A stretch of 64,000 nt of DNA from assembly GCA_964479005.1 (NCBI GenBank), contig CAYZJA010000002.1, forward strand, positions 32,001 through 96,000, given 5' to 3'. Of this stretch, positions 11,652 to 61,313 are shown in pieces; the first letter of the stretch is position 1; each line of letters opens with the position of its first letter. Made by a program: the position numbers and the translations under genes. This stretch comes from an uncultured Candidatus Saccharibacteria bacterium (lineage in GTDB: Bacteria > Patescibacteriota > Minisyncoccia > UBA6257). Below the pieces are notes generated by a model. That model made no database searches. It had not been told where the DNA came from and saw only the letters and a list, made by a program, of their open reading frames with translations.

Positions 11652-14600
11652 TTATGGAATAGTAGTTGTGGTTACCTCTGGAACAATTGGCGGAATATTT
11701 ATAAAAATTATTTTAGGAATTTCTGATTTTAACCCTTCACTGTCTTGAGCTTTGATACCAAAAAACACATCAAGGGAAACACCAGGTAATCTTTTCTTTT
11801 CTATATAACGTAAATCATCGATAGATACTTGAAGTCGAAGTTTATTTTCTTGAGCATTCAAAGTTGGTTCCCCTAAAACATTTTGAGATTGAGAGTATCT
11901 CCATGATTGTCGTGTTAAATCGTTGTTCTCTGAACCATCTCCTTGTTTGGCAAAAACATAATGAATATCATATTTTAAAATATCTTTTGGATCTTCATCC
12001 GAAGCTGGCGTCCAAGAAAAAATTAAATTATTACAATCTTCATTATCGCATTCCACTTCAAAATTTTTGACATTAGTTGGTTGATGATAATAATTTGAGG
12101 AATAAAAATAAAATTTAGTATCATCATAAGCAATTAATTTCAAATAAGACCGAATATTTTTAGCATATCCATAATAACCAATTGTTATATATTGATCAGG
12201 AGTAAAATTTAAACCTTGACCATGAGTAGTCCCTATAACATCAACAACAAAATGATTATCGCTAGATAATTTGTCTATTCTATAGGATAGTTTTCTCGGA
12301 ACAGCAGAGCCAGCTGCCATTTTTTCATCAGCAGTGAAAATTATACTTCCTACTTTTTGAGTATCACCAACATAATTAGGATAAGATAATAATAATCCAG
12401 GAGTATTGCTATATAATTCCCAGTCATTTTTACCACCTAAATAACCTGTTGGAATGCCAAAATTTGCTGAAGGATCATCAAAATCTGAGTGGAGATAGAA
12501 CACCATCGCCGTAAAAATATTGCTCGTATGATTTGTTGAAGGAATAAAAGGATAAGAATTAATTCTAAAATCAATTACTATTTTGGGAGAATCTTTCTCA
12601 AAAGGATGCCAAGAAAATTCAGTAATATAAGGTATTGTCGGCGCTGCAGGAGTAGTGGTTGTTGGGATGAAACAATCATTAGAAGAAAAACTTTTGGGAC
12701 TGGGACAATTTTGAATTTCAAAATCATCGGCATTATTATCAGAGTCCAAAAAATTACCATCTATATACTTTCTTTGAATGCTTTGACTTGGTTCAGGATT
12801 TATCGCGCAATTAACCTCACAATCATTTGCTTCTCCATAACCAATTTTATCTACTATTTCTCTATTGGGATTCTTTAGAATAATAGTATTATTATTAGTA
12901 AGACTATAATTAGAGACTAAAACATCGGCTATCTCTGTATAAGTACTTGAAGAATGAGTAATCAATAAATATCCAAAGGAACTAATAACTTTTTCTGCTA
13001 ACAAATGAGCTGGTACTAAAGAAGAAAATTCTTGACTATTTTGGGTTTTCTTTTGAATATACCAATCAGTTAAATCTACATCATTATCATTGGGATTATA
13101 AAGTTCTATAAATTCATCTTTTGTAAGAGTTTTTGCCTCAGAGTCCAACCCAGCAATTTTTATCTCATTAATTAGAATTTTAGGAAAAACAATGGGGGGT
13201 AATGTTGTTGTTGTAGTAGTAGTAGTTGTTGTTGTAGTAGTAGTTTGCGAAGATGGAGTTGAACCCCCTCCGCCGCCTGAAGAAATAATCACAGGTTGAC
13301 TATTCTCCCTTTTGGGTGTGCCCAAAATACCATTTTGTTCTACACCACCATAGGTATGCCATGATAAATTATTGCCTCTTTCCATTGTCCGTTTTTGAGA
13401 ATTATTTCCTGCTGACCAATCCAAATCAGCTAAAACTTCATCTTGAAGCTGACAATTACTATCAAATAAACGAAGTCCTTCATCAGCATTATTAAGGACC
13501 CCTGCATAAATATGATCTGCAATCACAAAAGGAATAGAACTATCATCTGTTCTTTCCAAAAGATAAAAACCATGAGCAGCTATTTTACTGCCTTGCTCAA
13601 AAACAATTTTAATTTGTTCTTTTTTATCTATTAGCTGCCAATTAGAAATATCTATTTCATGTGAAGAAATATTTTTTAATTCTATCCACTCGTCATTGGC
13701 ACTATTTTGGGTTCCCATCCAAGCTAGTTCACTAATAATTATTTTATTTCTTAATGTGGCTTGGGTAGTATTAAAAGAACAAAAATTGGGGCTAAGAGTA
13801 GTTGTTGTGGTTAGTTTAGTTGTTGTAGTAGTTGGTTTGGTAGTGGTGACAGTGAGTTTGGTAGTTGTTGTAAATAACTTAGTAGTAGTCGTGGTTTGTT
13901 TAGTAATGGTTGGTGATTTGGTAGTAGAAGGTTGATATTTTATTGTGGTGGTTGTGGTAATTTGGGAAAGAGTAGTCGGAGAAAAAGATAAGCTGGTGTC
14001 TGAAGCATCTGGGGGACTATGTGGAATTTCTGTTTCTTCAATCAAAACATATTCGGGATTTCTTTGAAAAATATCATTAATAAAATCAGAAAGACCACTT
14101 ATCATAGCTGTCAACACATTTTTTTCATTCTTTGATATAAAATCAGGCTTAGATTTTGCCCTTGCAACTTCTTGAAAAAATAAATCAATAACTCCAGCAC
14201 CAGTTAAAACTACCCTTTTAGAAAGCCTTTCCCAGTACTCCTGAAGAACTTGATCATCTTCTAATGAAAAAATCGTGGGGCCGGAAGTTAATCGCCATCC
14301 TATATTATTTTTTAAAATAAGCGCTAAATGAAAAATATTATGGTTTTCGTCTTCTCCTAGTACATAGAAAATTAATTTTCCATTTATTAACTCAGGTACT
14401 TCAGAAAAAACAGGCTGCGGCAATTTATATTTTGAACCCGAAATCGTATCGGGACTATAAAAGTAATTATTAGAATAAAGAGCAATTTCATCAAAATATT
14501 CGTCAAGGTTAACCCTTCTAACAGGTTTCAGATTTTCGATACTCTTTCGTGTTTGTTCGTAAAAATCTTTATTATTTTTAGCTGTATAGGATTCATAAGG

Positions 14601-15164
14601 ACTGCCTGTATTTGGTATAAAAAATATATGGACATTCTGTCTTGTATGCTCTGGCACACTCATATCCTGAATCAAATGTAAAATATGGCCGAGGGCCTTA
14701 AAGGCTTCAACTCGATTTCCTTTTACATACTTATAAATAGCCTGTTGCCAAGTAAAATTAGTCTTGGAAAAAACTGGACTTTTAGCTATTGGACCAATAA
14801 GAACTGAATAAATAGGATCGTAGACAGCTTGAGCAAAAGGGTTCTGCCCCCACTCTTTAGCAGTTAAAACCGGAAAAAGATGTTCTACTCCCCCAAACTG
14901 CCAAGTTTTATTAAAAACTGGATCATAAAAATGATTTACGCTTCTAACACCATCATCCTCATCAATGCTGCCTTGCATTAAAAGTTGTTTTTCTGTTTCA
15001 TTCAAGGCATGATTTAAAAAGTGTTGATTATAAAAGTCAACAGTAATTTCTGTTAAATTTGGATGTGTAGTTTTAGCATCGTAAGCAAGAACAGAAAAAT
15101 TAGGTAAAAAGAATAAACATACAAATAAACATACAAATAAAAAACTGGTGGGGCTTTTTCTCAT
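11652..15164 (-). CDS. Giant secreted/surface protein: PLC/P1-nuclease-superfamily-like N-domain, Thr-rich linkers, two lamin-tail (LTD) domains
   Basis: 1170 aa with a signal peptide. HILHLIQDMSVPEH resembles the zinc-ligand motif HxxGDxxxPxH of S1/P1 nuclease and phospholipase C. Poly-Thr/TTTTK linkers are present. Two LTD-like segments are EWIELKN...ISNWQL and EFIELYNPNDNDVDLTDWYI. Confidence 0.6.
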   Translation of the reverse strand: MRKSPTSFLFVCLFVCLFFLPNFSVLAYDAKTTHPNLTEITVDFYNQHFLNHALNETEKQLLMQGSIDEDDGVRSVNHFYDPVFNKTWQFGGVEHLFPVLTAKEWGQNPFAQAVYDPIYSVLIGPIAKSPVFSKTNFTWQQAIYKYVKGNRVEAFKALGHILHLIQDMSVPEHTRQNVHIFFIPNTGSPYESYTAKNNKDFYEQTRKSIENLKPVRRVNLDEYFDEIALYSNNYFYSPDTISGSKYKLPQPVFSEVPELINGKLIFYVLGEDENHNIFHLALILKNNIGWRLTSGPTIFSLEDDQVLQEYWERLSKRVVLTGAGVIDLFFQEVARAKSKPDFISKNEKNVLTAMISGLSDFINDIFQRNPEYVLIEETEIPHSPPDASDTSLSFSPTTLSQITTTTTIKYQPSTTKSPTITKQTTTTTKLFTTTTKLTVTTTKPTTTTTKLTTTTTLSPNFCSFNTTQATLRNKIIISELAWMGTQNSANDEWIELKNISSHEIDISNWQLIDKKEQIKIVFEQGSKIAAHGFYLLERTDDSSIPFVIADHIYAGVLNNADEGLRLFDSNCQLQDEVLADLDWSAGNNSQKRTMERGNNLSWHTYGGVEQNGILGTPKRENSQPVIISSGGGGGSTPSSQTTTTTTTTTTTTTTLPPIVFPKILINEIKIAGLDSEAKTLTKDEFIELYNPNDNDVDLTDWYIQKKTQNSQEFSSLVPAHLLAEKVISSFGYLLITHSSSTYTEIADVLVSNYSLTNNNTIILKNPNREIVDKIGYGEANDCEVNCAINPEPSQSIQRKYIDGNFLDSDNNADDFEIQNCPSPKSFSSNDCFIPTTTTPAAPTIPYITEFSWHPFEKDSPKIVIDFRINSYPFIPSTNHTSNIFTAMVFYLHSDFDDPSANFGIPTGYLGGKNDWELYSNTPGLLLSYPNYVGDTQKVGSIIFTADEKMAAGSAVPRKLSYRIDKLSSDNHFVVDVIGTTHGQGLNFTPDQYITIGYYGYAKNIRSYLKLIAYDDTKFYFYSSNYYHQPTNVKNFEVECDNEDCNNLIFSWTPASDEDPKDILKYDIHYVFAKQGDGSENNDLTRQSWRYSQSQNVLGEPTLNAQENKLRLQVSIDDLRYIEKKRLPGVSLDVFFGIKAQDSEGLKSEIPKIIFINIPPIVPEVTTTTIP

Positions 15165-37603: not shown

Positions 37604-39820
37604 TTAAAAAGGCAAAAATTCTGCCAAGAAACGATTTTTGTCGTATTTTCTTCTTTTGAGCTCTTGTTTAACAGTTTCTTCATTTCCGTGGATTTTGTCT
37701 TGGACAGATTTTACAAGTTTTTGTGCCCATTTTGTTTGTTTTTCAGTATCATTTGTTGACCTAAGCATAGCAGCAAAATTTCCAGCTGGAAGATTTTTAT
37801 CTAAAAGAGTATAGAAAAATCGATTGGTATGCTGTGGTCCTTTTTCTTCTAATCTTTCAAGAATGTTTTCCCAATTACCTAATTTTATATCATCAGGCGA
37901 AGATTTTAGCAGTTGTTCTGCTATAAGATTAGTGATAACACGATTTTTAGCTTCATCACGAGAGACTCCATGGAATCTTCGCTTCATCTGTTCTATTGCT
38001 TTGTCCATATCTTCAGGTTTTGTAAAGTATTTAGCATGAAGTTCTGGATGAATTTTTTTAATTCCTGAAACATTTAAATTAGGTTGATTTTTAGCTATTT
38101 CGATGAACTTGCTATCTTTTTTATAATCCAGTGATTCTTTTCCTATTAATGTGTTAACACCCAAAGCCATTCTTCCCCCATCTGTCTTATGTGCTTCCAT
38201 ATCAACTCTAATTTGATCTGGGCTTCTTCCTTTATAATCTTCTTCAATTTGTTTTAGTTCAGCTTCGCGAACTTTCCTAGGCTGCCTACCCATCCAAACC
38301 CCTATGTCATGTGTAGGCGCAAATTTGCTGTCTTCTAATTTTTTCTGAGCTTTTCTCCATGGTTCTGAGCTTACGGCTCCTTTTAATGCTTTATGACCAA
38401 GGAAGGCGCCAGCTACTGCTCCAGCCTTAGTAGTTTGTTTCATAACTAATTGAGATGCTGCTCCTCCGCTTTGGAGGGAGAAAATTAATCCTCCTACCAA
38501 AAACATAGAGAATAAAATCATTTGCACTATTGTTGAAGTTACAGAGTCTGCGCCGATTGATATTTGACTCATTCCACTCATTGCTATTATAGCAATATAC
38601 AGTATAAAACTAAAAATAACAGGAAAAAAACACCATTTTATAAATTGTTGCCACCACATTTTCCAATATTTTTCTGTATCTGGGAAAATCCAACAAGCAA
38701 AAACGATAGGGGATAAACCTAGAAGCATAATTAAAATGAATGCTCTGAAAATTATTGTCAAGAAAATAGCAAGCAAAGCAATAACAGCAAAACCTCCAAC
38801 CAATATCATTATAAAGCTGATTATGAAAAAGTTACCAAAACGTAGGCTATAACTCTCTACTTCCGTTGCTGCTGTTGTAGTTGCTGTACCAGTATCTCCA
38901 AGACCTAGAATTTTTGGCGTTTCATATTTATCCTCGCCAAATAAAACAGGAGGATCAAATGTTTTTGTATCCGCTGATTGTTGTTCTTGTTCAATATAAC
39001 TAAAACTTTCCATTATACGAGGGGCAAGGCTTTCATTTTTTTCTTGAGCAATGTTTAGAAAATATACTGAGAGATAATTAGAAGTATCTACTATGATTCC
39101 TGATATAACTAAACTGAAGTTTACTAACAAAGCAACAAGTATTAATTTCCAAAGGATTTGTTTCCAAGCATATTTTTTATAACCAAGAATAGTTGCGATA
39201 GCAATACCTATTAACCCTAAAACTAAAAGTGCGTTAACTAAATTGCGCATCATTTCCCATATTTGTATAACACCATCATTTGTAGCAAATCCGCCATAAG
39301 TTTTCGGATTTAACGCTTTTAATATCCAGCCTATTTCTAAATCTATTAATCCAGCAAACATTTTACCCAAACCTTCAAGTATGGCTTTTGTAGTAACACA
39401 CCACATGTCTGCAATCACTACTTTTATTTCGCATCCAAGCGCATCTAACCCCCAACCATACCTCGCTGCGCATTCCTGCATTCCCTCTTCAAAGTTCTTC
39501 TTACAAAGACCTTCTGGCCTTTCTTCTTGAAGTCTGGTTTTTATTGTCTGTGCTCCATGTCTTATCTCTGTTGTCCCAGGTTCAGGATTTGGAATACAAC
39601 ATTGCTCACTACCAAATCCAGGACAACTCAAAGAAGATTCAATGTAATCTTCTAAATCACTACATTTTGTTGTCTTTTTAACAACACATGTACCTCCTGC
39701 TTCTTCGCAGTCAGACCCAGCTCTTACTTGTGAAATATCAGTTTTTAAAACAGGGCTGATTAGTAATGTAAGAATAACTATGCTAAAAACCCCAATTTTT
39801 AATATATTTTTTGTTTTCAT
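37604..39820 (-). CDS. VirB6/TrbL-like polytopic membrane protein with N-terminal Cys-rich extracellular domain and C-terminal soluble domain
   Basis: 738 aa. A signal peptide is followed by a Cys-rich region with about 8 Cys, at least 6 TM helices in the middle and a soluble C-terminal 250 aa. Confidence 0.5.
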   Translation of the reverse strand: MKTKNILKIGVFSIVILTLLISPVLKTDISQVRAGSDCEEAGGTCVVKKTTKCSDLEDYIESSLSCPGFGSEQCCIPNPEPGTTEIRHGAQTIKTRLQEERPEGLCKKNFEEGMQECAARYGWGLDALGCEIKVVIADMWCVTTKAILEGLGKMFAGLIDLEIGWILKALNPKTYGGFATNDGVIQIWEMMRNLVNALLVLGLIGIAIATILGYKKYAWKQILWKLILVALLVNFSLVISGIIVDTSNYLSVYFLNIAQEKNESLAPRIMESFSYIEQEQQSADTKTFDPPVLFGEDKYETPKILGLGDTGTATTTAATEVESYSLRFGNFFIISFIMILVGGFAVIALLAIFLTIIFRAFILIMLLGLSPIVFACWIFPDTEKYWKMWWQQFIKWCFFPVIFSFILYIAIIAMSGMSQISIGADSVTSTIVQMILFSMFLVGGLIFSLQSGGAASQLVMKQTTKAGAVAGAFLGHKALKGAVSSEPWRKAQKKLEDSKFAPTHDIGVWMGRQPRKVREAELKQIEEDYKGRSPDQIRVDMEAHKTDGGRMALGVNTLIGKESLDYKKDSKFIEIAKNQPNLNVSGIKKIHPELHAKYFTKPEDMDKAIEQMKRRFHGVSRDEAKNRVITNLIAEQLLKSSPDDIKLGNWENILERLEEKGPQHTNRFFYTLLDKNLPAGNFAAMLRSTNDTEKQTKWAQKLVKSVQDKIHGNEETVKQELKRRKYDKNRFLAEFLPF

Positions 39821-45195: not shown

Positions 45196-46551
45196 TCATT
45201 TTTTCTCTTTCTTTTTACCTCCTCCGGCTTGTCCTATCAAATAATCTTCTCCCTTCATCAGAAGTCCAATAAAAAGAATTAAGATTAATGTAACAAACCA
45301 ACCAGCTGCTCCAAAAGCTGTTCCCCATGCAGATTCTTTTTTCTCAATATGTTCTTTTGCTTTTGTGATAGAATCTGGGACTTCTTCTTTTTGTTTTGTT
45401 ATCTTTTCTATTGTTTTTCTAAGCGCTTGAAATTCTTTTGTGTTTATGAGTTTTTGAACTTTTTCCTTTGTCTTTGGATCCTCAAAAAAGTTAACCAGTT
45501 CGGGCAGAACCTTGGATACTGCTTCTTTGTCAAACCCAAATTTTTTTAATTGTTCTATAATTATTTCATCTGGCGGTAATTTGTCGTGTTTCATATCTTT
45601 CTTTAGATCCTGTAAAGATTGTTTCTTCTTTTCAATTGATTCTTTCTCTATATCTGCTATTTCTGCTATAGTTTTTGACTTAATATCTGGGTTTTCTATA
45701 TTTTTAACAATAACATCAACATTGCCTTTAAAAGGTATATCTTCTGAGGCTAAAATCTGGGCTATTTCTTTGAAGGTTTTATCCTTTGAATAAAAAATAT
45801 TCTCTTTTTCTAATTGTCCATTAACAAAATTTTTTATTATTTTCAGTTTTTCTTTATCCTCAAGACCCCACTCTTTATAGTCTAAGGCCATAGTTAAGCC
45901 AACTTTGTTAACTGTTTGTGCCTTTTTTAAATCATAAAGAAATATCGATGGCTCTAATCTATTAAGTTCTGAGAAAATATTTTGGATGCCTTTATAATTA
46001 TCTAAATAGGCTGTGTCTGTCCAGTCGTCGATTAATTTAAAGTATCTTTCCGTTTTTTCTTTTTTTAATTTTTTAGTATCACATGGCATTTGCTTGATTT
46101 TTTCCAGTTCATCATAATATTCCTCTGTAATCTCTCTTTCTAAATCCTCTTTTTCCTTTTCTTTTTCTCCTTTTTTCTTTTTTGGACCCTCTTTCTTCCC
46201 AGGTTTTTTTCCTTCTGGTTTTACCTCCTTTTCTTCTTTTCCCCCCGGAGTTTCTTTAGTCTGTTTGTCTAGTGTGGTATATTTTATTTCTAACTCCTTC
46301 TTTTTTTGTATGTCGTCGGGACTAAGATATTCTTTATCATCTAATTTCTTTAATTCTTCTTCTAATGATGTTAATTCTTTATCAGTCTCTTCCTTTTTTG
46401 CATGGTCACCTTCTTTATCCTGTTCTGTTGATTCAGCGCTTTTCTCCTCAGCAGGTTTTCTCCAGATACCATTTTCAAGAACCCATCCAGGATAGGGAGG
46501 TTGTTCTTTAGATGGTTCTAATGGAGTATTTGGTATTTGTTCAAATCTCAT
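45196..46551 (-). CDS. K/E-rich hypothetical protein with C-terminal TM anchor
   Basis: 451 aa of highly charged low-complexity sequence. The C-terminus has a TM helix followed by GGGKKKEKK. Confidence 0.4.
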   Translation of the reverse strand: MRFEQIPNTPLEPSKEQPPYPGWVLENGIWRKPAEEKSAESTEQDKEGDHAKKEETDKELTSLEEELKKLDDKEYLSPDDIQKKKELEIKYTTLDKQTKETPGGKEEKEVKPEGKKPGKKEGPKKKKGEKEKEKEDLEREITEEYYDELEKIKQMPCDTKKLKKEKTERYFKLIDDWTDTAYLDNYKGIQNIFSELNRLEPSIFLYDLKKAQTVNKVGLTMALDYKEWGLEDKEKLKIIKNFVNGQLEKENIFYSKDKTFKEIAQILASEDIPFKGNVDVIVKNIENPDIKSKTIAEIADIEKESIEKKKQSLQDLKKDMKHDKLPPDEIIIEQLKKFGFDKEAVSKVLPELVNFFEDPKTKEKVQKLINTKEFQALRKTIEKITKQKEEVPDSITKAKEHIEKKESAWGTAFGAAGWFVTLILILFIGLLMKGEDYLIGQAGGGKKKEKK

Positions 46552-54534: not shown

Positions 54535-55701
54535 ATGCCCAAAGTAAAATGTAGAGTTTGCAAAAAGATATTCTATATCAAATCCAATTGGCTTAAAAGA
54601 GGATGGGGAAAATATTGTTCGAGGAAATGTCAGTACAAATCCCAATTGAAAGGAAAATTTGTGGTTTGCGCCTATTGCGGTAGAAGGGTATATCGATCAC
54701 TTGCTGAATTGCGCAGAAAATCTAAGGCAGGAGTTTATTTTTGTAATTTATCCTGTCATTGCGCTTGGAAAAATAAACAAAGGAAAAGTAAGGGAAGATT
54801 TAAATTACAAAATTTATGGGGACCGTGGTGTAATAGTAGCACTAGGACCTGTGGCGTCCTCGGTACGGATGCAAATTCCGTCGGTCCCCCATTTTTCTTT
54901 CTAAAATTCTTAAAGCCCAAGAAGAAAAAAAATAATCTTTTATTTCTTAAGCGGCCACCAAAGAAAATTCTTTATCATTTTTATTGGAAAAAGAATTATA
55001 CCCAAACAGAGATAGCTAAAATTTTTAATGCCACCCACACTAGCGTGAAAAGATGGTTTAATTATTATAAAATCATGGTGAAGTACCGAACTCTATCTTG
55101 TGGCCATAATCCCAATATTTTAAGAAATTTAAAATTAGGTCGTACAGATAAAGCTATTAGAAAATCGGCAGAAGCAAGAAGAATTTATTCAAAAGAAAAA
55201 CTTATTGAAAAAATAAAAGAATTTGTACAAAAAGAAGAAAGAATTCCTACAAAGAACGAATTTATTAATAATTCCTCTTATCCAGATTATGTCACTTACA
55301 GGCATTATTTTGGCACTTGGAATAATGCCATCAAGACAGCGGGCTACAAGCCAAATGAACAATGGTTTGCCTCAGGACATTTATTTGCTAAAGATGGGCA
55401 CAAATGTAATTCAATTTCAGAAATAATCATTGACGATTGGTTTTTTGAAAATGATATTTCTCATACGAGAGAGTGTTTATACCCAGAAGGACGATATCGC
55501 TGTGATTTTATGGTTGGCAATACTTTTATTGAATTTTTTGGTTTATTTAATGCTTCCATTGTTAACCCAAGTTATATTGAAATCGTTAAAAGAAAAAAAG
55601 AAATATGTAAGAAATTTAATATTGTCCTCATTGAACTCTATGAGAAGGATCTTTATAAATTAGATCAATCCTTGGGAGCAAAGATTGGATTAAAAGTATA
55701 A
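54535..55701 (+). CDS. Composite ORF: N-terminal double Zn-ribbon, HTH, HNH-repeat (homing-endonuclease-associated) and DUF559/Vsr-like PD-(D/E)xK nuclease region
   Basis: 388 aa. The CxxC..CxxxC repeat occurs twice. The other elements are an HTH (TQTEIAKIFNATHTSVKRW), an HNH-repeat-like motif (YVTYRHYFGTWNNAIKTAGY) and a C-terminal S.SE....DDW...N..H..E...P.G.YR.DF.V......IEF.G. The ORF reads through an embedded tRNA-His-like gene at 54818-54891 and a poly-A tract, so the true CDS boundaries are uncertain and it may be a fragmented gene. Confidence 0.4.
   Translation: MPKVKCRVCKKIFYIKSNWLKRGWGKYCSRKCQYKSQLKGKFVVCAYCGRRVYRSLAELRRKSKAGVYFCNLSCHCAWKNKQRKSKGRFKLQNLWGPWCNSSTRTCGVLGTDANSVGPPFFFLKFLKPKKKKNNLLFLKRPPKKILYHFYWKKNYTQTEIAKIFNATHTSVKRWFNYYKIMVKYRTLSCGHNPNILRNLKLGRTDKAIRKSAEARRIYSKEKLIEKIKEFVQKEERIPTKNEFINNSSYPDYVTYRHYFGTWNNAIKTAGYKPNEQWFASGHLFAKDGHKCNSISEIIIDDWFFENDISHTRECLYPEGRYRCDFMVGNTFIEFFGLFNASIVNPSYIEIVKRKKEICKKFNIVLIELYEKDLYKLDQSLGAKIGLKV
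54818..54891 (+). tRNA. tRNA-His-like gene (anticodon GTG) with encoded G-1:C73
   Basis: Hand-folded. G-1 is followed by the acceptor GGGACCG/CGGTCCC and discriminator C. The D-arm is GTGT..GCAC, the anticodon stem-loop is AGGAC-CTGTGGC-GTCCT and the T-arm is ACGGA-TGCAAAT-TCCGT. It is oriented opposite to the neighbouring tRNAs and lies inside the predicted ORF. Confidence 0.6.
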
Positions 55702-56321: not shown

Positions 56322-58448
56322 TTAATCTTTGCGCATAATCTGATGACGTGTATATGCCAACCAAATATCACGAATTTTACTTTCTACTCTAACTAAAGCA
56401 AGCTGTCCTTTAGGATTAAATTTCAGATAATACCAGATTATTAAAGCTGATATTAAGCTGATAATAAGAGATATTAACAAAGTGTTCAAAGGGCCTGTGC
56501 GGATTGTGGCAGCGCCTGCTACTAATCCATAGGTAATTGAAGCGCTATCTGTTATTTTAGTTTCATTGTCTGCTGTTACTTCAGCAGTATTGGTGTAAGT
56601 CAAATAAGTTCCTGAAGAAAGGCTGATAGCTTGGAATACAATTGCTTTACTAGCTCCTCTATAAATTGTTCCTAACGATAATCCGGTGGTAGCAATCGTA
56701 TCTGATTGTACTATGCCATTAATTTTAGTAGTACCAGGCATATAACTAAGTACAGAAGGCATAATATCTTTTAAGCTTACGTTATAAAGATCTTTATTAT
56801 TGCCAGCAGTTATAGTTAAGTGGAATTCAATTACATCGCCTTCAGTAACACGAATAACTTTTGAATATACTCTATCCCCAGAAGAAAGATTTCTTCCTAA
56901 TTTTGTCAAATTAAGGTTAGTGCTTATAGAAGTTACGTAGATCGTAACAGAGCGTGTGATTTGTCCGCCACTACCATAACAAGTTAAGCGATACGTTGTA
57001 TCAGAATTGGGAGAAGTAGATTCATATCCACTAGTTGATTTACTTCCGCTCCATCCATTAGAAGCAGTACAGTAGTTAGCATTAGTGGAGGTCCAGCGAA
57101 GATATGTAGATTCTCCTTGAGTAATCGTATATTTATCTGCCCAGAGATTAAGTGTAGGGGTATTAGTGTATTGTCCACTGACATTTACACTACAAGAAGT
57201 ACTTGCGCTTCTATTTTGTGAATCATGAACAGTTAAATAAGCTGTGTAATTACCATATGAACTAAAACTTTTTTGACTATATGAAGTACTACCATAAGTT
57301 GCCCCAGACCAATAATATGAATAATTTCCTGAACCACCAGAAATATTACTAGAAAAAGTAACTGTTTGGTCCGTTTGGGCTGGATTAGGGGAGGCAGAAC
57401 AAGAAACAGATAGAGATTGATTTGTTTGTTGACAAGCATTAGCACAATCATTATATGAAATATAAGAGCCAGAAGTTGTTTGATAACATTGATGGGTAGA
57501 ATAATTACAAGAATATCTTGTTTGGGCAATGCAGTTATTTTGGCAATTATTTAAAGAAGTGTAAGGACCAGAAGTTGATTGATAACATTGCCATGTAGAA
57601 GTATTGCATGCATATCTAGTTATGGGTGTTTGGCAAGCATTTGCACAATCATTTAAATTAGCATAAGCCCCATTAGTAGCTACATAACATTGATAAGTAT
57701 TTGTATTACAGGAATATCTTGTTGGTGCAATACAGTTATTTTGACATGTGCTTAAAGAGGTATATTGTCCATTAGAATCTACCACACATTGATAATTAGA
57801 ATTGCAAGTGTATCGAGTTACAGGCGGCTGACAATTAGTTGTGCAATCATTTAAATTAGCATAAGCCCCATTAGTAGCTACATAGCATTGATAAGTATTT
57901 GTATTGCATGAATATCTTGTTGGAGATGGAGGTGCCTGAACATAAACCGTAGCGCTATCAGTGACCGTATCGTAATGGCAGTTACTATTACAAGTGATTG
58001 TAAAAGCAGTAGTTTTAGTAAGATTATTAATAGATTTATTTCCATTAAGAGTTACGCTACCACTCCATTGATAATTATACGGAGAAGCAGATGCAGTACA
58101 GTAATTAGTATTAGAAGAAGTCCAGTGCAAAGTAGCAGAACTATTGTATGGAACAGAAGTCGGGGCAGCAGAAATATTTACTGATGGGGAATGGCAAATA
58201 GTAGTGGTTGTGGTAGGAGGACAGGTTGTTGTAGTGGTGCAAGGAGGTTGTGTAGTTGTAGTTGTGGTAGGGGTAGGATAATGGCAATCAGGATAATGGC
58301 AAGGTGGATAAGTAGTTGTAGTTGGACCCGTAACAATTATAGAAGCATCTACAAAAGATGGACTTATTAATGTAAATAGCAAAATAGCCCCTAAGACAAA
58401 GCTTGGGATTATATATTTTCTAAGAGTTCTATAAAAAAGCTTGTTCAT
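56322..58448 (-). CDS. Secreted surface protein: Thr/Pro linker, ~7 tandem ~31-aa Cys-rich repeats, DUF11-like domain, C-terminal TM anchor with basic tail
   Basis: 708 aa with a signal peptide. Repeats follow TRYSCNTNTYQCYVATNGAYANLNDC..NCQ.P. The DUF11-like region covers LNLTKLG...VIEFHLTITAGNN...AEVTADNE. The C-terminus reads ...IRTGP, then a hydrophobic helix, then K/R-rich sequence. Confidence 0.6.
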   Translation of the reverse strand: MNKLFYRTLRKYIIPSFVLGAILLFTLISPSFVDASIIVTGPTTTTYPPCHYPDCHYPTPTTTTTTQPPCTTTTTCPPTTTTTICHSPSVNISAAPTSVPYNSSATLHWTSSNTNYCTASASPYNYQWSGSVTLNGNKSINNLTKTTAFTITCNSNCHYDTVTDSATVYVQAPPSPTRYSCNTNTYQCYVATNGAYANLNDCTTNCQPPVTRYTCNSNYQCVVDSNGQYTSLSTCQNNCIAPTRYSCNTNTYQCYVATNGAYANLNDCANACQTPITRYACNTSTWQCYQSTSGPYTSLNNCQNNCIAQTRYSCNYSTHQCYQTTSGSYISYNDCANACQQTNQSLSVSCSASPNPAQTDQTVTFSSNISGGSGNYSYYWSGATYGSTSYSQKSFSSYGNYTAYLTVHDSQNRSASTSCSVNVSGQYTNTPTLNLWADKYTITQGESTYLRWTSTNANYCTASNGWSGSKSTSGYESTSPNSDTTYRLTCYGSGGQITRSVTIYVTSISTNLNLTKLGRNLSSGDRVYSKVIRVTEGDVIEFHLTITAGNNKDLYNVSLKDIMPSVLSYMPGTTKINGIVQSDTIATTGLSLGTIYRGASKAIVFQAISLSSGTYLTYTNTAEVTADNETKITDSASITYGLVAGAATIRTGPLNTLLISLIISLISALIIWYYLKFNPKGQLALVRVESKIRDIWLAYTRHQIMRKD

Positions 58449-58538
58449 ATTTTTATGTTTTTATTTCTATATTAAAGATTTCCATAATATTATCACATAA
58501 AGATATAACTGTCAAGGAGTAATGGATTTAGCATGGAC

Positions 58539-58566
58539 TTGACAAATCACAAAAATGTAGTATAAT
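58539..58566 (+). promoter_or_regulatory. Consensus sigma70 promoter (TTGACA-16-TATAAT)
   Basis: TTGACA at 58539-58544 and TATAAT at 58561-58566, upstream of the small ORF and lipoprotein operon. Confidence 0.6.
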
Positions 58567-58633
58567 TTAATTAACATCTTAGTATTTTAGCATCATTGAT
58601 AATTTAATAAATGAAAAAAAGGAGATAGATAGA

Positions 58634-58762
58634 ATGAGAATCAAAAAGGCATATCTTTTATTAGTAATTATAGGTTTTGTAATATTGCTAATTGGTTTTT
58701 GTGTTTATGACAAGGGGCCTACAAAAATATATAGAGTTTACGAATTTTCTTTAGAAAGATAA
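58634..58762 (+). CDS. Unannotated small membrane protein (42 aa)
   Basis: A strong SD (aaggagat) lies 7 nt upstream of the ATG. It translates as MRIKKAYLLLVIIGFVILLIGFCVYDKGPTKIYRVYEFSLER. The downstream gene has its own SD. Confidence 0.4.
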   Translation: MRIKKAYLLLVIIGFVILLIGFCVYDKGPTKIYRVYEFSLER

Positions 58763-58802
58763 GAGAGATAAAGAAAGAAATAAAAAAAAGGAGGAAAAAG
58801 AA

Positions 58803-59252
58803 ATGAAAGGAATGAAAAGAAAAGTACTATTTTTTGTTTTAGTAATTTTGCTGGGAGGTTTGTTGACAGGGTGTAATATTGTAATTACTGCACCTGATTG
58901 TTGCCCGTCTCAAATCGAGTGCAGCCTTACTGTAGTGGCAGACTCTTCAGAGGTATATGGAGAAATTGTTGTCAATGGTCAACGAACTGGAAAGTATATA
59001 TTACCTGGTCAATCAATAATAATTTACGGAGTTCTTTGCAATCAGATTGCGACGATTTCTATAGTTGATAATTGTGGGTATTGGTCGCACGAGGAGAATA
59101 TTTACATAATTCCAGGGTCAAACAACTATGTTGTCTTTAGTTACTGGGGTCCATACGGTGTATACAAGGAACAGCAGAAGGAACAGAATGACTATCAGGG
59201 ACAGAACGATTGTCATTGTCATTGTATGAGTATGATGAGTACGAAGGATTAA
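58803..59252 (+). CDS. Lipoprotein (LTGC lipobox) with C-terminal CHCHC motif
   Basis: 149 aa with a signal peptide ending LLTGC. Confidence 0.5.
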   Translation: MKGMKRKVLFFVLVILLGGLLTGCNIVITAPDCCPSQIECSLTVVADSSEVYGEIVVNGQRTGKYILPGQSIIIYGVLCNQIATISIVDNCGYWSHEENIYIIPGSNNYVVFSYWGPYGVYKEQQKEQNDYQGQNDCHCHCMSMMSTKD

Positions 59253-59282
59253 ATAAGGGCTAAGAAGTTAGTAGTACAAAGT

Positions 59283-59324
59283 ATCAAGCTTGTTCAGTAA
59301 GTGGGCAAGCTTGATTTTTTTTAA
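59283..59324 (+). terminator. Rho-independent terminator
   Basis: The 10-bp stem atcaagcttg/caagcttgat has a 14-nt loop and is followed by T8. Confidence 0.7.
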
Positions 59325-59354
59325 ATTCAATTTTCGTTTTGACATATAATATTG

Positions 59355-59386
59355 TTATTTGTCAGGAGGTGATAAATGTGGTATAA
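59355..59386 (+). promoter_or_regulatory. Promoter with extended -10 (TTGTCA-17-TGgTATAAT)
   Basis: Read directly from the sequence upstream of the CAP-domain gene. Confidence 0.4.
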
Positions 59387-59456
59387 TATAAATATAATTA
59401 GAAATTTATTAAAATTAATAGAAATTGATAGAAATTTATTGTAATATATATTAAAT

Positions 59457-60443
59457 ATGAAAATGTTATCTAAAATTAAAAATTGGTTTTTGCCGACTAA
59501 AGAGAATAATTTTCAGCCAAGCGTTTTAAGCGACAGGGCGATTTCTGTTTTTATACTTTTATTTTTATTGGTAAAAGTTATTTTTAGTTTTAATTTAATA
59601 TTAGTAAAACAGTCTTCTCTTTTTGCCGATATTAGCGCTCAAAGAATAATATTTTTAACTAATGAAGTTCGTCAGCAATATGATTTGCCTCTTGTGCAAG
59701 AAGATTCATTATTAAACAAGGCTGCCCAGGAAAAGGCTCAGGATATGTTTAAAAATAAATATTTTAGTCATTATAGCCCAGCTGGAACTTCTCCTTGGCA
59801 TTGGATAGATAAATCTGGATATGATTATTATTATGCTGGGGAAAATTTGGCAATGAATTTTTTAGACACCGAAGAAGTAATAGAAGGATGGCTTAATTCC
59901 CCTTCTCATAGGGAAAATCTTTTGAATAAAGACTATAAAGACATGGGAATTGCTGTTGTTTCAGGAGATTTTAATAGTGAAGGAATTAACAGGATTTTGG
60001 TAGTGCAGATGTTTGCTTCTAAAGCCAAACCATCAATTCCTGTAGCTATGGCTCAAGTTCCTCCAGAGGTTATTCCTTCTGAGGAAATTTTGGAAGAAAA
60101 CAAAGTTTTACCTGAAACAACGGAAACAACAATTCAGACGATTATTGGGGTTGCAGAGGAACAGGCGAAAGATATAACCAGTAAACAGGTTTTAGCGCAA
60201 AAAAATGTATTAGCTCAAATTAATAATAATACAAGAAATCAGGTAGAAACAACGAATAAAGTTATTGCTGGGTTTATAATTCTTTTGGGGGTAATGGCTA
60301 TTGCGGGAATTATTTTGCAGCAGAAAACAATTAGTTTTGGTCTTTCCGAACTCGTTTTAAGAAGCGCAATTATTATTATTTTAGGCGTGTCGTTTACCGC
60401 TTTTCATTTAGAGAATTTAATAGGACACTTGATGATATCTTAA
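59457..60443 (+). CDS. Membrane-anchored CAP/SCP/PR-1 (YkwD-like) domain protein
   Basis: 328 aa with an N-terminal TM helix. The CAP motifs are HYSPAG...GENLA and WLNSPSHRENLL. There are two TM helices at the C-terminus. Confidence 0.7.
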   Translation: MKMLSKIKNWFLPTKENNFQPSVLSDRAISVFILLFLLVKVIFSFNLILVKQSSLFADISAQRIIFLTNEVRQQYDLPLVQEDSLLNKAAQEKAQDMFKNKYFSHYSPAGTSPWHWIDKSGYDYYYAGENLAMNFLDTEEVIEGWLNSPSHRENLLNKDYKDMGIAVVSGDFNSEGINRILVVQMFASKAKPSIPVAMAQVPPEVIPSEEILEENKVLPETTETTIQTIIGVAEEQAKDITSKQVLAQKNVLAQINNNTRNQVETTNKVIAGFIILLGVMAIAGIILQQKTISFGLSELVLRSAIIIILGVSFTAFHLENLIGHLMIS

Positions 60444-60488
60444 TTGTTATTTGTTGATTGTTACTTGTTATTTGCTATTATGTAGGAT

Positions 60489-61175
60489 ATGTTTAAAGAT
60501 TTAAAGCTTTTTTTTCAGATTTTTTTTATAATTTTTATAATTTCTTTTTTTATTTTTAATGGGGCTGCTTTTTTTGATTTAGTAAATTATAAAATTAATA
60601 AATCAACAGAAGTCATAAAGCAAGAATTAATTCGTACTCCTTCTTTTTTAACTAATTTGCCTACACTTGAGGGAATACAATCTTTAATACCAAGCATTAT
60701 TTCACCTGTAATTAGGCCTATTCCTCCTGAAGCAAAAAATGCCAATATTTTAGAAATACCTCAGTTTAATATTAAAGCGCCAATTTTGGAGGTGGAAACA
60801 GCTGATTCAGAGACAATTTATAAAAAATTAAGACAAGGCGTTGTATTATACCCAGGTTCTGATATTCCTGGTAAGGGTTATTCTATTATCGTAGGGCATA
60901 GCTCACAATATCCTTGGGATCCAGGCAGATATAAATCAGTGTTTTCTTTATTAAACCAATTAGAGCAAGGTGATAAAGTTTATGTATTTTGGGATCAAAG
61001 ACCATTAGTTTTTGAAGTAAAAGAGAAAAAGATATTTTTGCCTTGGCCCAAAGGAACAGAAAGCACTGAAATTATTTTTCCGCCAAGCGATGAGAGAACT
61101 TTAATCTTACAAAGCTGCTGGCCTGTAGGCGTTGCCTCTAAAAGAGTGGCAGTGAAAACGGTTCTTGTAAGATAA
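60489..61175 (+). CDS. Sortase family transpeptidase
   Basis: 228 aa with an N-terminal TM helix. The catalytic His is in IIVGHS, the Cys in LILQSCWP (TLxTC-like) and the Arg in KRVAVKTV. Confidence 0.75.
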   Translation: MFKDLKLFFQIFFIIFIISFFIFNGAAFFDLVNYKINKSTEVIKQELIRTPSFLTNLPTLEGIQSLIPSIISPVIRPIPPEAKNANILEIPQFNIKAPILEVETADSETIYKKLRQGVVLYPGSDIPGKGYSIIVGHSSQYPWDPGRYKSVFSLLNQLEQGDKVYVFWDQRPLVFEVKEKKIFLPWPKGTESTEIIFPPSDERTLILQSCWPVGVASKRVAVKTVLVR

Positions 61176-61219: not shown

Positions 61220-61294
61220 GCCGTCATCGTCTAGCTTGGTTTAGGACACGGGGCCTTCAATCCCGTAACATGGGTTCAAATCCCATTGACGGCA
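61220..61294 (+). tRNA. tRNA-Glu (anticodon TTC)
   Basis: Acceptor GCCGTCA/TGACGGC. The anticodon stem-loop is CGGGG-CCTTCAA-TCCCG and the T-arm is ATGGG-TTCAAAT-CCCAT. C33 is unusual. Confidence 0.65.
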
Positions 61295-61313
61295 CTCTTC
61301 ATTTTTCTTATTT

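Follow-up and report, generated by a model that had tools for sequence, protein, structure and literature searches.

Does a sortase encoded near a cysteine-rich surface protein act on that protein, and which signal would it read? We addressed this question in a 64,000-nucleotide stretch of DNA (the window) from an uncultured Candidatus Saccharibacteria bacterium (assembly GCA_964479005.1, contig CAYZJA010000002.1, positions 32,001 to 96,000 of the forward strand), which encodes a 708-aa surface protein precursor, a lipoprotein, a CAP-domain membrane protein and a sortase (Table 1). The lineage belongs to the Candidate Phyla Radiation (CPR); it has tiny genomes and is believed to live in attachment to other cells. 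Sortases are widespread in CPR bacteria (PMC6744442; also PMC7143001), and we found no description of a CPR sortase motif, client protein or CAP partner in the searchable literature. The locus is a concrete, testable enzyme-motif-client triple for an uncultivated lineage.

An initial annotation had proposed that the Cys-repeat/DUF11 protein, the sortase and the CAP protein form a surface-display module, and the conservation of a C-terminal motif and the linkage of the genes in rearranged contexts both agree with this proposal. From sequence comparisons, we consider it probable that the sortase and the 708-aa protein are a dedicated enzyme-substrate pair, with cleavage between T651 and G652.

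The C-terminal motif and the enzyme

The 708-aa protein starts with a signal peptide and ends in a tripartite sorting layout, which consists of a T-G motif, a hydrophobic helix and a positively charged tail. In the AlphaFold2 model of the protein (built on 22 homologues; mean predicted local distance difference test score, pLDDT, 77.7), residues 644–653 (AGAATIRTGP) are disordered (pLDDT <50) and lie between the last CLIPPER strand and the transmembrane (TM) helix. The tail after the TM helix has 31 residues, KFNPKGQLALVRVESKIRDIWLAYTRHQIMRKD, is net basic and conserved in relatives, and contains a predicted helix at residues 679–706. The C-terminus had first been described as TIRTGP followed by a helix of about 20 aa and a KR tail; the motif and the helix (residues 655–677) were borne out, whereas the tail is 31 aa long and conserved. 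The signal is indeed not a canonical LPXTG, as it matches neither the consensus nor the LPXTG-anchor model TIGR01167 (E ≤ 0.1).

We measured the conservation of the motif in relatives retrieved by their tails. Metagenomes were scanned with the tail pattern [WF]Y[YL][LFI][KT][FY][NT][PQE][KQR]G only, hence independently of the motif, while a set picked by a motif regular expression was dropped as circular. The scan found 45 loci that yielded 27 distinct full-length segments. Across these segments, the residues at −26 (A646), −24 (T648), −21 (T651) and −20 (G652) are always A, T, T and G, respectively; V or I occupies position −23 and K, R, Q or E position −22, and there is no insertion or deletion between the TG and the tail. 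Past the CLIPPER domain, a 22-sequence alignment has only T648, T651 and G652 invariant, with V643, G645 and A646 nearly so, and the motif is the most conserved stretch of the protein's C-terminal third. The resulting consensus is V-x-G-A-(A/S)-T-(V/I)-x-T-G-(P/A/T), with V643, G645, A646, T648, V/I649, T651 and G652 conserved. In its last five positions it follows the LPXTG format, with R650 at the free X position; the xRTG motif suggested by the initial annotation was therefore abandoned, as R650 is the variable position (K/R/Q/E in relatives). Because the segment is disordered and also invariant with one free position, it behaves as a recognition site and not as a structural element.

The motif also occurs outside the closest relatives. 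Word-indexed homologue searches returned 2 matches for the 97-aa C-terminus and 14 for the orthologue alignment, saturated by low-complexity candidates, and were replaced by the tail-pattern scan and a profile search. A C-terminal profile hidden Markov model (HMM) of 70 positions was searched against 1.84 billion representative proteins (E ≤ 1e-3) and matched 23 proteins, at the extreme C-terminus except in P0150, P0151, P0152 and P0154 (weakest). The close matches are orthologues of the 708-aa protein. The distant proteins P0150–P0153 have multiple CLIPPER domains, other N-terminal parts and unrelated tails, yet carry VLGA(A/S/T)TV(Q/R)TGP; the motif is also weakly matched in P0154, a non-DUF11 protein. 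A sortase co-occurs with the motif in loci L036, L082 and L084 and in the genome GCA_964520445.1. The C-terminal motif is present in 27 distinct relatives and in distant multi-CLIPPER proteins. The repeats, the motif and the tail are not a chance pattern, as they recur in dozens of homologues.

The enzyme is a sortase with an intact His/Cys/Arg triad, as first proposed. It matches Pfam PF04203 (MEROPS C60) at 64.7 bits (cut-off 26.6) and has the eight-stranded sortase beta-barrel fold; all 53 homologues share H137, C210 and R219, which correspond to the catalytic GH and TC.P...R in alignments with the solved sortases 2xwg and 6ixz. The family signatures are GHSSQYPW and LILQSCWPVGVA.KR. Its class is less readily assigned. 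Five NCBIfam class models (C, D, E, F and GN) give a match, all far under their cut-offs, the best being class D (36.6 bits versus 165), with class C at 35 versus 160 and class E at 19.5 versus 160; the class A and B models have no match at E ≤ 0.1, and the generic model TIGR01076 reaches 36.0 versus 39.35. By comparison of structures and PDB sequences, the best matches are class C sortases (Foldseek E 1.8e-12; PDB sequences E ~1e-3). The enzyme has an N-terminal anchor only, as in housekeeping sortases, and its chain stops 9 residues past R219; there is no DP[FWY] lid motif before beta1 and no C-terminal TM helix. Because of these features, it cannot be classified as pilus-specific, which had been named as the outcome that would speak against the surface-display proposal; the HMM classification places it within PF04203 and in no NCBIfam class.

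Gene linkage and rival readings

Among close relatives, the region is syntenic in the order NusA ... DUF11 gene, lipoprotein, CAP, sortase, TsaD, LeuRS, PrsW, HSP20 and type IV secretion system (T4SS)-pilin genes, and adjacency alone consequently proves little. We scanned species-representative genomes and found 24 sortase loci (47–90% identity). A tblastn map of these loci shows that sortase-TsaD adjacency is almost universal, while the DUF11 gene is present in a subset only. Linkage was counted in non-redundant loci with at least 6 kb on each side. The sortase loci of this kind contain a DUF11 gene in 9 of 15 cases and a CAP gene in 11 of 15; conversely, 5 of 9 DUF11 loci contain a sortase and 8 of 9 a CAP gene. 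The combinations vary: some loci hold all four genes, others DUF11 and CAP with no sortase (L034, L068, L071, L073, L076 and L080), lipoprotein and DUF11 only (L074, L075, L078 and L079), lipoprotein, CAP and sortase (L019, L023 and L031) or lipoprotein and sortase (L030).

We found that the association persists where the gene order has changed. In L082, CAP (32% identical) is followed by a PEMT/ICMT-like methyltransferase, then a sortase (36% identical) and last P0151, a multi-CLIPPER protein of 1138 aa; all are on one strand beside glycosyltransferases and without TsaD. P0151 ends in VLGAATVQTGP, and the L082 sortase has GHSSAYPW and LILISCWPVG. In L036, the C-terminal fragment of a sortase (43% identical) lies 77 bp upstream of the gene for the 672-aa multi-CLIPPER protein P0152, which ends in VLGASTVQTGP; the contigs of P0152, P0153 and P0154 are short and give little context, and L036 still showed the sortase fragment. 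In L084, the sortase has 309 aa (59% identity in the catalytic domain), and its gene is divergent from, and 182 bp away from, the gene for the 921-aa orthologue P0147, with no CAP gene and with RecG inserted ahead of TsaD. Adjacency of a sortase to a CLIPPER protein with TVxTG is therefore kept in three rearranged contexts with sortases 36–59% identical, and the sortase-substrate linkage goes beyond shared gene order. In GCA_964520445.1, both genes are present and unlinked, on separate contigs. Across ~1 Mb of related DNA, the DUF11 family alone has open reading frames (ORFs) in which a TM helix comes after the motif, and the 64-kb window contains no further candidate substrate.

If the two proteins form a dedicated pair, the 708-aa precursor would be exported through Sec, its stalk of Ig-like, Cys4-repeat, PKD-like and CLIPPER domains would fold outside the cell, and the C-terminal helix and the basic cytoplasmic helix would hold it in the membrane. 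The membrane-anchored sortase would then recognise the flexible V-A-G-A-A-T-I-R-T-G-P just outside the membrane, and Cys210 would attack the T651-G652 bond and free the fragment with the TM helix and the tail. An envelope amine would resolve the acyl-enzyme, and the stalk would end covalently fixed to the wall. The acceptor is most likely a peptidoglycan precursor, since the window also codes for a class A penicillin-binding protein, a LysM-M23 peptidase and an SLT-type lytic transglycosylase domain protein. It is plausible that the 708-aa protein is an adhesin or attachment fibre.

Several observations weigh against the dedicated pair. Adjacency among close relatives is largely ordinary shared gene order (NusA...TsaD-LeuRS-PrsW), 6 of the 15 well-flanked sortase loci lack a DUF11 gene within 10 kb, and the DUF11 gene has no sortase nearby (within 10 kb) in L032, L068, L071 and L080. 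The motif A-T-I-R-T-G is without the Leu and Pro that canonical sortases grip, and it goes unrecognised by the LPXTG-anchor model. The conserved 31-aa tail is atypical of sortase signals, and the anchor could be retained. All motif-bearing passengers except one still carry DUF11, and the scan of the bacterium's own genome for other substrates covered 64 kb only.

The strongest alternative is a permanent membrane anchor formed by the C-terminal helix and the conserved cytoplasmic helix. TVxTG would then be no more than a conserved juxtamembrane linker, and the sortase would serve other substrates, located here by inherited gene order. A long, conserved and predicted helical tail is consistent with it, as is the position of the TG, 56 residues from the C-terminus and outside the range of 17–45 residues that sortase-substrate screens normally use (PMC4155245). 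The near-universal pairing of sortase and TsaD likewise looks like housekeeping gene order, and there are the DUF11 orthologues without a sortase within 10 kb. However, disorder (pLDDT <50) and invariance with just one free position are not an expected combination in a purely structural linker, and the motif persists in proteins whose tails are unrelated. The sortase-CLIPPER adjacency in the three rearranged contexts, at 36–59% sortase identity, and the lack of any other substrate in ~1 Mb of related DNA also argue against this alternative, which we consider unlikely.

A second alternative is a pilus-type polymerase that joins Thr651 to a lysine of the next subunit, producing a covalent CLIPPER fibre instead of, or before, wall anchoring. 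The class C identity of the top Foldseek and PDB sequence matches points in this direction, together with a CnaA-like domain in the substrate and its weak match to the RrgB isopeptide domain model (22.1 bits, under the cut-off of 30). Against it, the class C HMM score is far below its cut-off, the lid motif and the C-terminal TM helix are missing from the enzyme, and no YPKN-like pilin motif was found on reading the substrate sequence. The module also has one sortase gene and one substrate gene, with no minor pilins or second housekeeping sortase in view, and we regard polymerization as improbable. Finally, it is very improbable that another membrane protease (PrsW-family or signal-peptidase-like) processes the motif and that the sortase is irrelevant to the 708-aa protein: a PrsW-protease gene is syntenic in close relatives, three genes downstream, but it goes with TsaD-LeuRS and not with the CLIPPER gene and was not seen in L082 or L084, and the ...T-G format with a variable X position has the hallmarks of a sortase motif.

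The dedicated sortase-substrate pair can be extended to a more ambitious and tentative proposal, whose parts we would not expect to hold all together. The enzyme would represent an unclassified Paceibacterota sortase class (GHSS.YPW, SCWPVG) with an obligate CAP partner of three TM helices, and it would read (A/S)-T-(V/I)-x-T-G together with a long cytoplasmic helix in place of LPXTG and a short basic stub. It would have one client, the main host-attachment fibre, whose stalk would be built of a new disulfide- or metal-stabilised beta-beta-alpha Cys4 repeat of strain-variable copy number.

Stalk, partner proteins and neighbouring genes

The positions of the genes and protein domains are collected in Table 1. 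The four ORFs of the initial annotation (708, 149, 328 and 228 aa) were all found where it had placed them, with the sortase gene about 2 kb from the 708-aa gene and the CAP and lipoprotein genes in between.

Table 1. Genes and protein features of the sortase locus (window coordinates; residues refer to the encoded protein)
Feature	Position	Strand	Basis or remark
708-aa surface protein precursor gene, putative sortase substrate	56322..58448	-	ORF; Pfam/NCBIfam domains; AlphaFold2
Sec-type signal peptide, residues 1-35	58344..58448	-	Basic n-region, hydrophobic core, ...SFVDA|S (cleavage site inferred from sequence)
Thr/Pro-rich low-complexity linker with Cys/His, residues 36-88	58185..58343	-	pLDDT <50 at 27-82
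Ig-like beta-sandwich domain A, residues 89-170	57939..58184	-	All-beta, pLDDT >90
Five tandem Cys4 repeats, residues 176-342	57423..57923	-	Regular expression, Cys positions, translation, secondary structure
PKD-like beta-sandwich, residues 347-424	57177..57410	-	All-beta, pLDDT 79-89
Ig-like beta-sandwich domain B, residues 432-506	56931..57155	-	AlphaFold2; kept in all orthologues
DUF11/CLIPPER (CnaA-like) domain, residues 512-640	56529..56915	-	Pfam PF01345 and TIGR01451
VAGAATIRTGP, putative sortase recognition motif, residues 643-653	56490..56522	-	Scissile bond T651-G652 inferred
C-terminal transmembrane helix, residues 655-677	56418..56486	-	Hydrophobicity and AlphaFold2
Conserved net-basic cytoplasmic helix, residues 678-708 (KFNPxGKL...E.K.R...)	56325..56417	-	Putative retention tail
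Divergent intergenic region, 354 bp, promoter-like sites in both directions	58449..58802	.	Consensus matches only
149-aa Cys-rich lipoprotein, lipobox L-T-G-C24	58803..59252	+	ORF; lipobox in sequence
328-aa membrane protein, CAP/YkwD-like domain 67-185 extracytoplasmic	59457..60443	+	Pfam CAP and TM prediction
228-aa sortase: TM anchor ~1-33, linker, catalytic domain ~85-228	60489..61175	+	Pfam PF04203

The 708-aa protein is built as a multidomain stalk. A hydrophobic segment at residues 9–41 and a helix at 3–28 in the AlphaFold2 model support the signal peptide. Ig-like domain A distantly resembles domain B (35–36% identity to residues 431–520 by tblastn), and residues 347–424 are PKD-like only, as Pfam PKD (PF00801) scores 21.0 bits there, under its cut-off of 23.5. 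The DUF11-like beta domain recognised by the initial annotation exceeds both cut-offs at residues 534–632 (PF01345, 28.9 bits versus 24.6; TIGR01451, 31.4 versus 24), and it has no match among PDB sequences, including none to 9IFR. The CLIPPER family has a Lys-Asn isopeptide triad with a catalytic Asp/Glu (PMC12617251). The candidate positions are conserved here (K516 in 19 of 21 sequences, D561 in 22/22, E541 in 21/22 and N620 in 22/22) and, by analogy, K516, D561 (or E541) and N620 form a plausible candidate isopeptide triad. A Foldseek search with the whole model returned generic multi-Ig proteins only (complement, alpha-2-macroglobulin, integrins), which is uninformative on the Cys4 repeat.

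The Cys4 repeats begin at residues 178, 212, 244, 278 and 311, and each fits RY.C-x5/6-C-x12-14-C-x3-C by a regular-expression search of the translation. The initial annotation had counted about seven tandem repeats of 31 aa with four Cys each; the four cysteines stand, but there are five repeats with a period of 32–34 aa, whose DNA is too diverged for Tandem Repeats Finder. The structural prediction gives a beta-hairpin plus helix for each repeat; the hairpin carries two of the cysteines and the helix a CxxxC. No family in Pfam, NCBIfam, PHROGs or PDB sequences matches the repeats. The ligand spacing of classical zinc fingers resembles that of this beta-beta-alpha arrangement; for an exported protein, two disulfides are no less likely than a metal site.

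Across orthologues, the copy number of the Cys4 repeat ranges from 1 to ~13. Between L003:3886-5712 and L004:3679-5712, where the sortases are identical, the DUF11 proteins have 608 and 677 aa and differ by two Cys4 repeats. N-terminal domains are swapped among DUF11 orthologues (including P0144 and P0147). Stalk length and head therefore vary between closely related populations.

A second T-G sequence is present at the other end of the protein. Once the signal peptide is removed at its predicted site, the mature protein would begin with S-I-I-V-T-G-P-TTTT (residues 37–43, window 58320–58340, minus strand), where IIVTGP echoes the C-terminal T-I-R-T-G-P; a second sortase site and a coincidence are both possible. 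As a second sortase site it was set aside, being kept in the closest clade only and missing in P0130, P0136 and P0139, and it is not counted as part of the mechanism.

The two remaining products were also much as first described. The membrane-anchored CAP-domain protein matches Pfam PF00188 at 73.1 bits (cut-off 21.1), is YkwD-like at 105 bits, under the subfamily cut-off of 171, and has one N-terminal and two C-terminal predicted hydrophobic helices. The protein encoded between the 708-aa and sortase genes has the expected lipobox (LTGC24) and no family match in Pfam, NCBIfam, PHROGs or PDB sequences. The CAP gene is directly upstream of the sortase gene in most relatives and is seen again in the distant L082 module; many relatives have a lipoprotein homologue beside the sortase or the DUF11 gene, even at loci without CAP or sortase. 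Both the CAP protein and the lipoprotein are probably parts of this module and may serve to position the substrate or to act on the wall. We found no functional link between bacterial CAP proteins and sortases in the literature searched, and the recurrent CAP-domain partner is a genomic handle on bacterial CAP proteins. In L082, a 162-aa PEMT/ICMT-family membrane methyltransferase (L082:4795-5283) lies between CAP and sortase and overlaps the sortase start by ~25 bp; the window has no equivalent.

Signals in the intergenic DNA were identified as consensus matches only. The divergent region has a TTGACA-16-TATAAT site (12/12) at 58539–58566 on the plus strand and a TTGACA-17-TAATAT site with a TG at 58515–58487 on the minus strand. 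A terminator-like hairpin with a T-run follows the lipoprotein gene at its 3' side (59283–59315), and a further promoter-like site precedes the CAP gene. The gap between the CAP and sortase genes is 45 bp, and a tRNA-Glu gene (61220–61295) lies between the sortase gene and tsaD.

The window has a G+C content of ~32% and reads with the standard genetic code. Its genes match metagenome-assembled genomes (MAGs) labelled Paceibacterota, Minisyncoccia, Parcubacteria or Patescibacteria; an identical 708-aa protein was called on a 158-kb Joint Genome Institute (JGI) contig, while a contig of 551 kb has a record of the sortase cluster. One related Patescibacteria MAG, GCA_964520445.1 (L028:9989-10690, CAZFNU010000001; L085:9474-12122, CAZFNU010000022), appears to read TGA as Trp. 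Its DUF11 gene has 13 in-frame TGA codons, all given as W in P0148, and its sortase gene has two, exactly at the family-invariant W143 and W211 (GHSSSYP*, LILQSC*PVG); ORF lengths approximately double under table 4. The literature searched gave no clear account of UGA=Trp for this group.

Other parts of the window have further features of note. A 388-aa ORF with an HNH/homing-endonuclease-associated repeat (54535–55701, plus strand; the JGI call starts later and has 351 aa) contains a tRNA-His (gtg) predicted by ARAGORN at 54819–54890 on the same strand, which Rfam does not report at gathering score. The N-terminal part of this ORF, including an AT-rich FFFLKFLKPKKKK stretch, is probably not coding. 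Genes for tRNA-Pro, tRNA-Arg and tRNA-Ala lie just upstream on the opposite strand. A 1170-aa secreted protein (11652–15164, minus strand) contains Thr-rich linkers and a pair of Lamin-Tail (LTD) domains and lacks a C-terminal anchor; a homologue also occurs near the DUF11/CAP pair in L034 and L068. A 451-aa Lys/Glu-rich protein (45196–46551, minus strand) lacks a signal peptide, and its one TM helix lies close to the C-terminus (408–440), which gives it a tail-anchored look; its gene adjoins clpP, and a similar gene follows clpP in L075 and L079. The window also encodes a TrbL/VirB6-like membrane protein (37604–39820, minus strand), and all relatives (L001–L031) have 2–3 small T4SS-pilin (TrbC/VirB2-like) genes and a solute-binding protein gene ~5 kb past the sortase. 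The T4SS-like genes are a second envelope system, unrelated to the sortase.

Comparison with known sorting systems

The module would work like LPXTG sorting, yet it lies outside any defined sortase class and outside the LPXTG-anchor model. As in the SrtA-type sorting of Staphylococcus aureus, the substrate has a signal peptide and a T-G pentapeptide ahead of a TM helix and a basic tail. It differs in that the motif, (A/S)-T-(V/I)-x-T-G, is without Leu and Pro, and the tail is 31 aa long and conserved. The enzyme, moreover, scores far below the cut-off of every class model that it matches, and it has one apparent substrate and a conserved CAP-domain membrane partner. Should it read T-V/I-x-T-G in place of LPXTG, the sortase would be orthogonal to existing ligation tools.

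Class C pilus sortases share with this system the best Foldseek and PDB matches, a CnaA-like substrate with a plausible isopeptide triad, and clustered genes. Unlike them, it has a single substrate gene and no lid motif, C-terminal anchor or pilin motif, and its class C score is 35 bits against 160. The CLIPPER fibrillar adhesins (PMC12617251) are similar in having a signal peptide, an Ig-like/CLIPPER stalk, a C-terminal sorting region and the conserved Lys/Asp/Asn; the 708-aa protein, in contrast, has one CLIPPER domain, a stalk made largely of Cys4 repeats and a sorting region that is not a catalogued signal.

The nearest precedents for a signal without proline are the LAxTG signals read by the class E sortase SrtE1 of Streptomyces (PMC5148588) and the NVQTG proposed for CbpA of Clostridioides difficile (PMC4155245). 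CbpA is a collagen-binding-type surface protein in which x-V-x-T-G is likewise followed by a TM helix; its signal is only proposed, as the class B enzyme SrtB of C. difficile did not cleave NVQTG in vitro (PMC4155245). Class E sortases accept a non-proline residue at P3, as the sortase of the window would, and likewise occur outside the Firmicutes in bacteria with a high-complexity envelope. The enzyme described here differs from them in its score (19.5 bits versus 160), in the Thr instead of Leu at P4 and in its distinct signatures, GHSSQYPW and SCWPVG.

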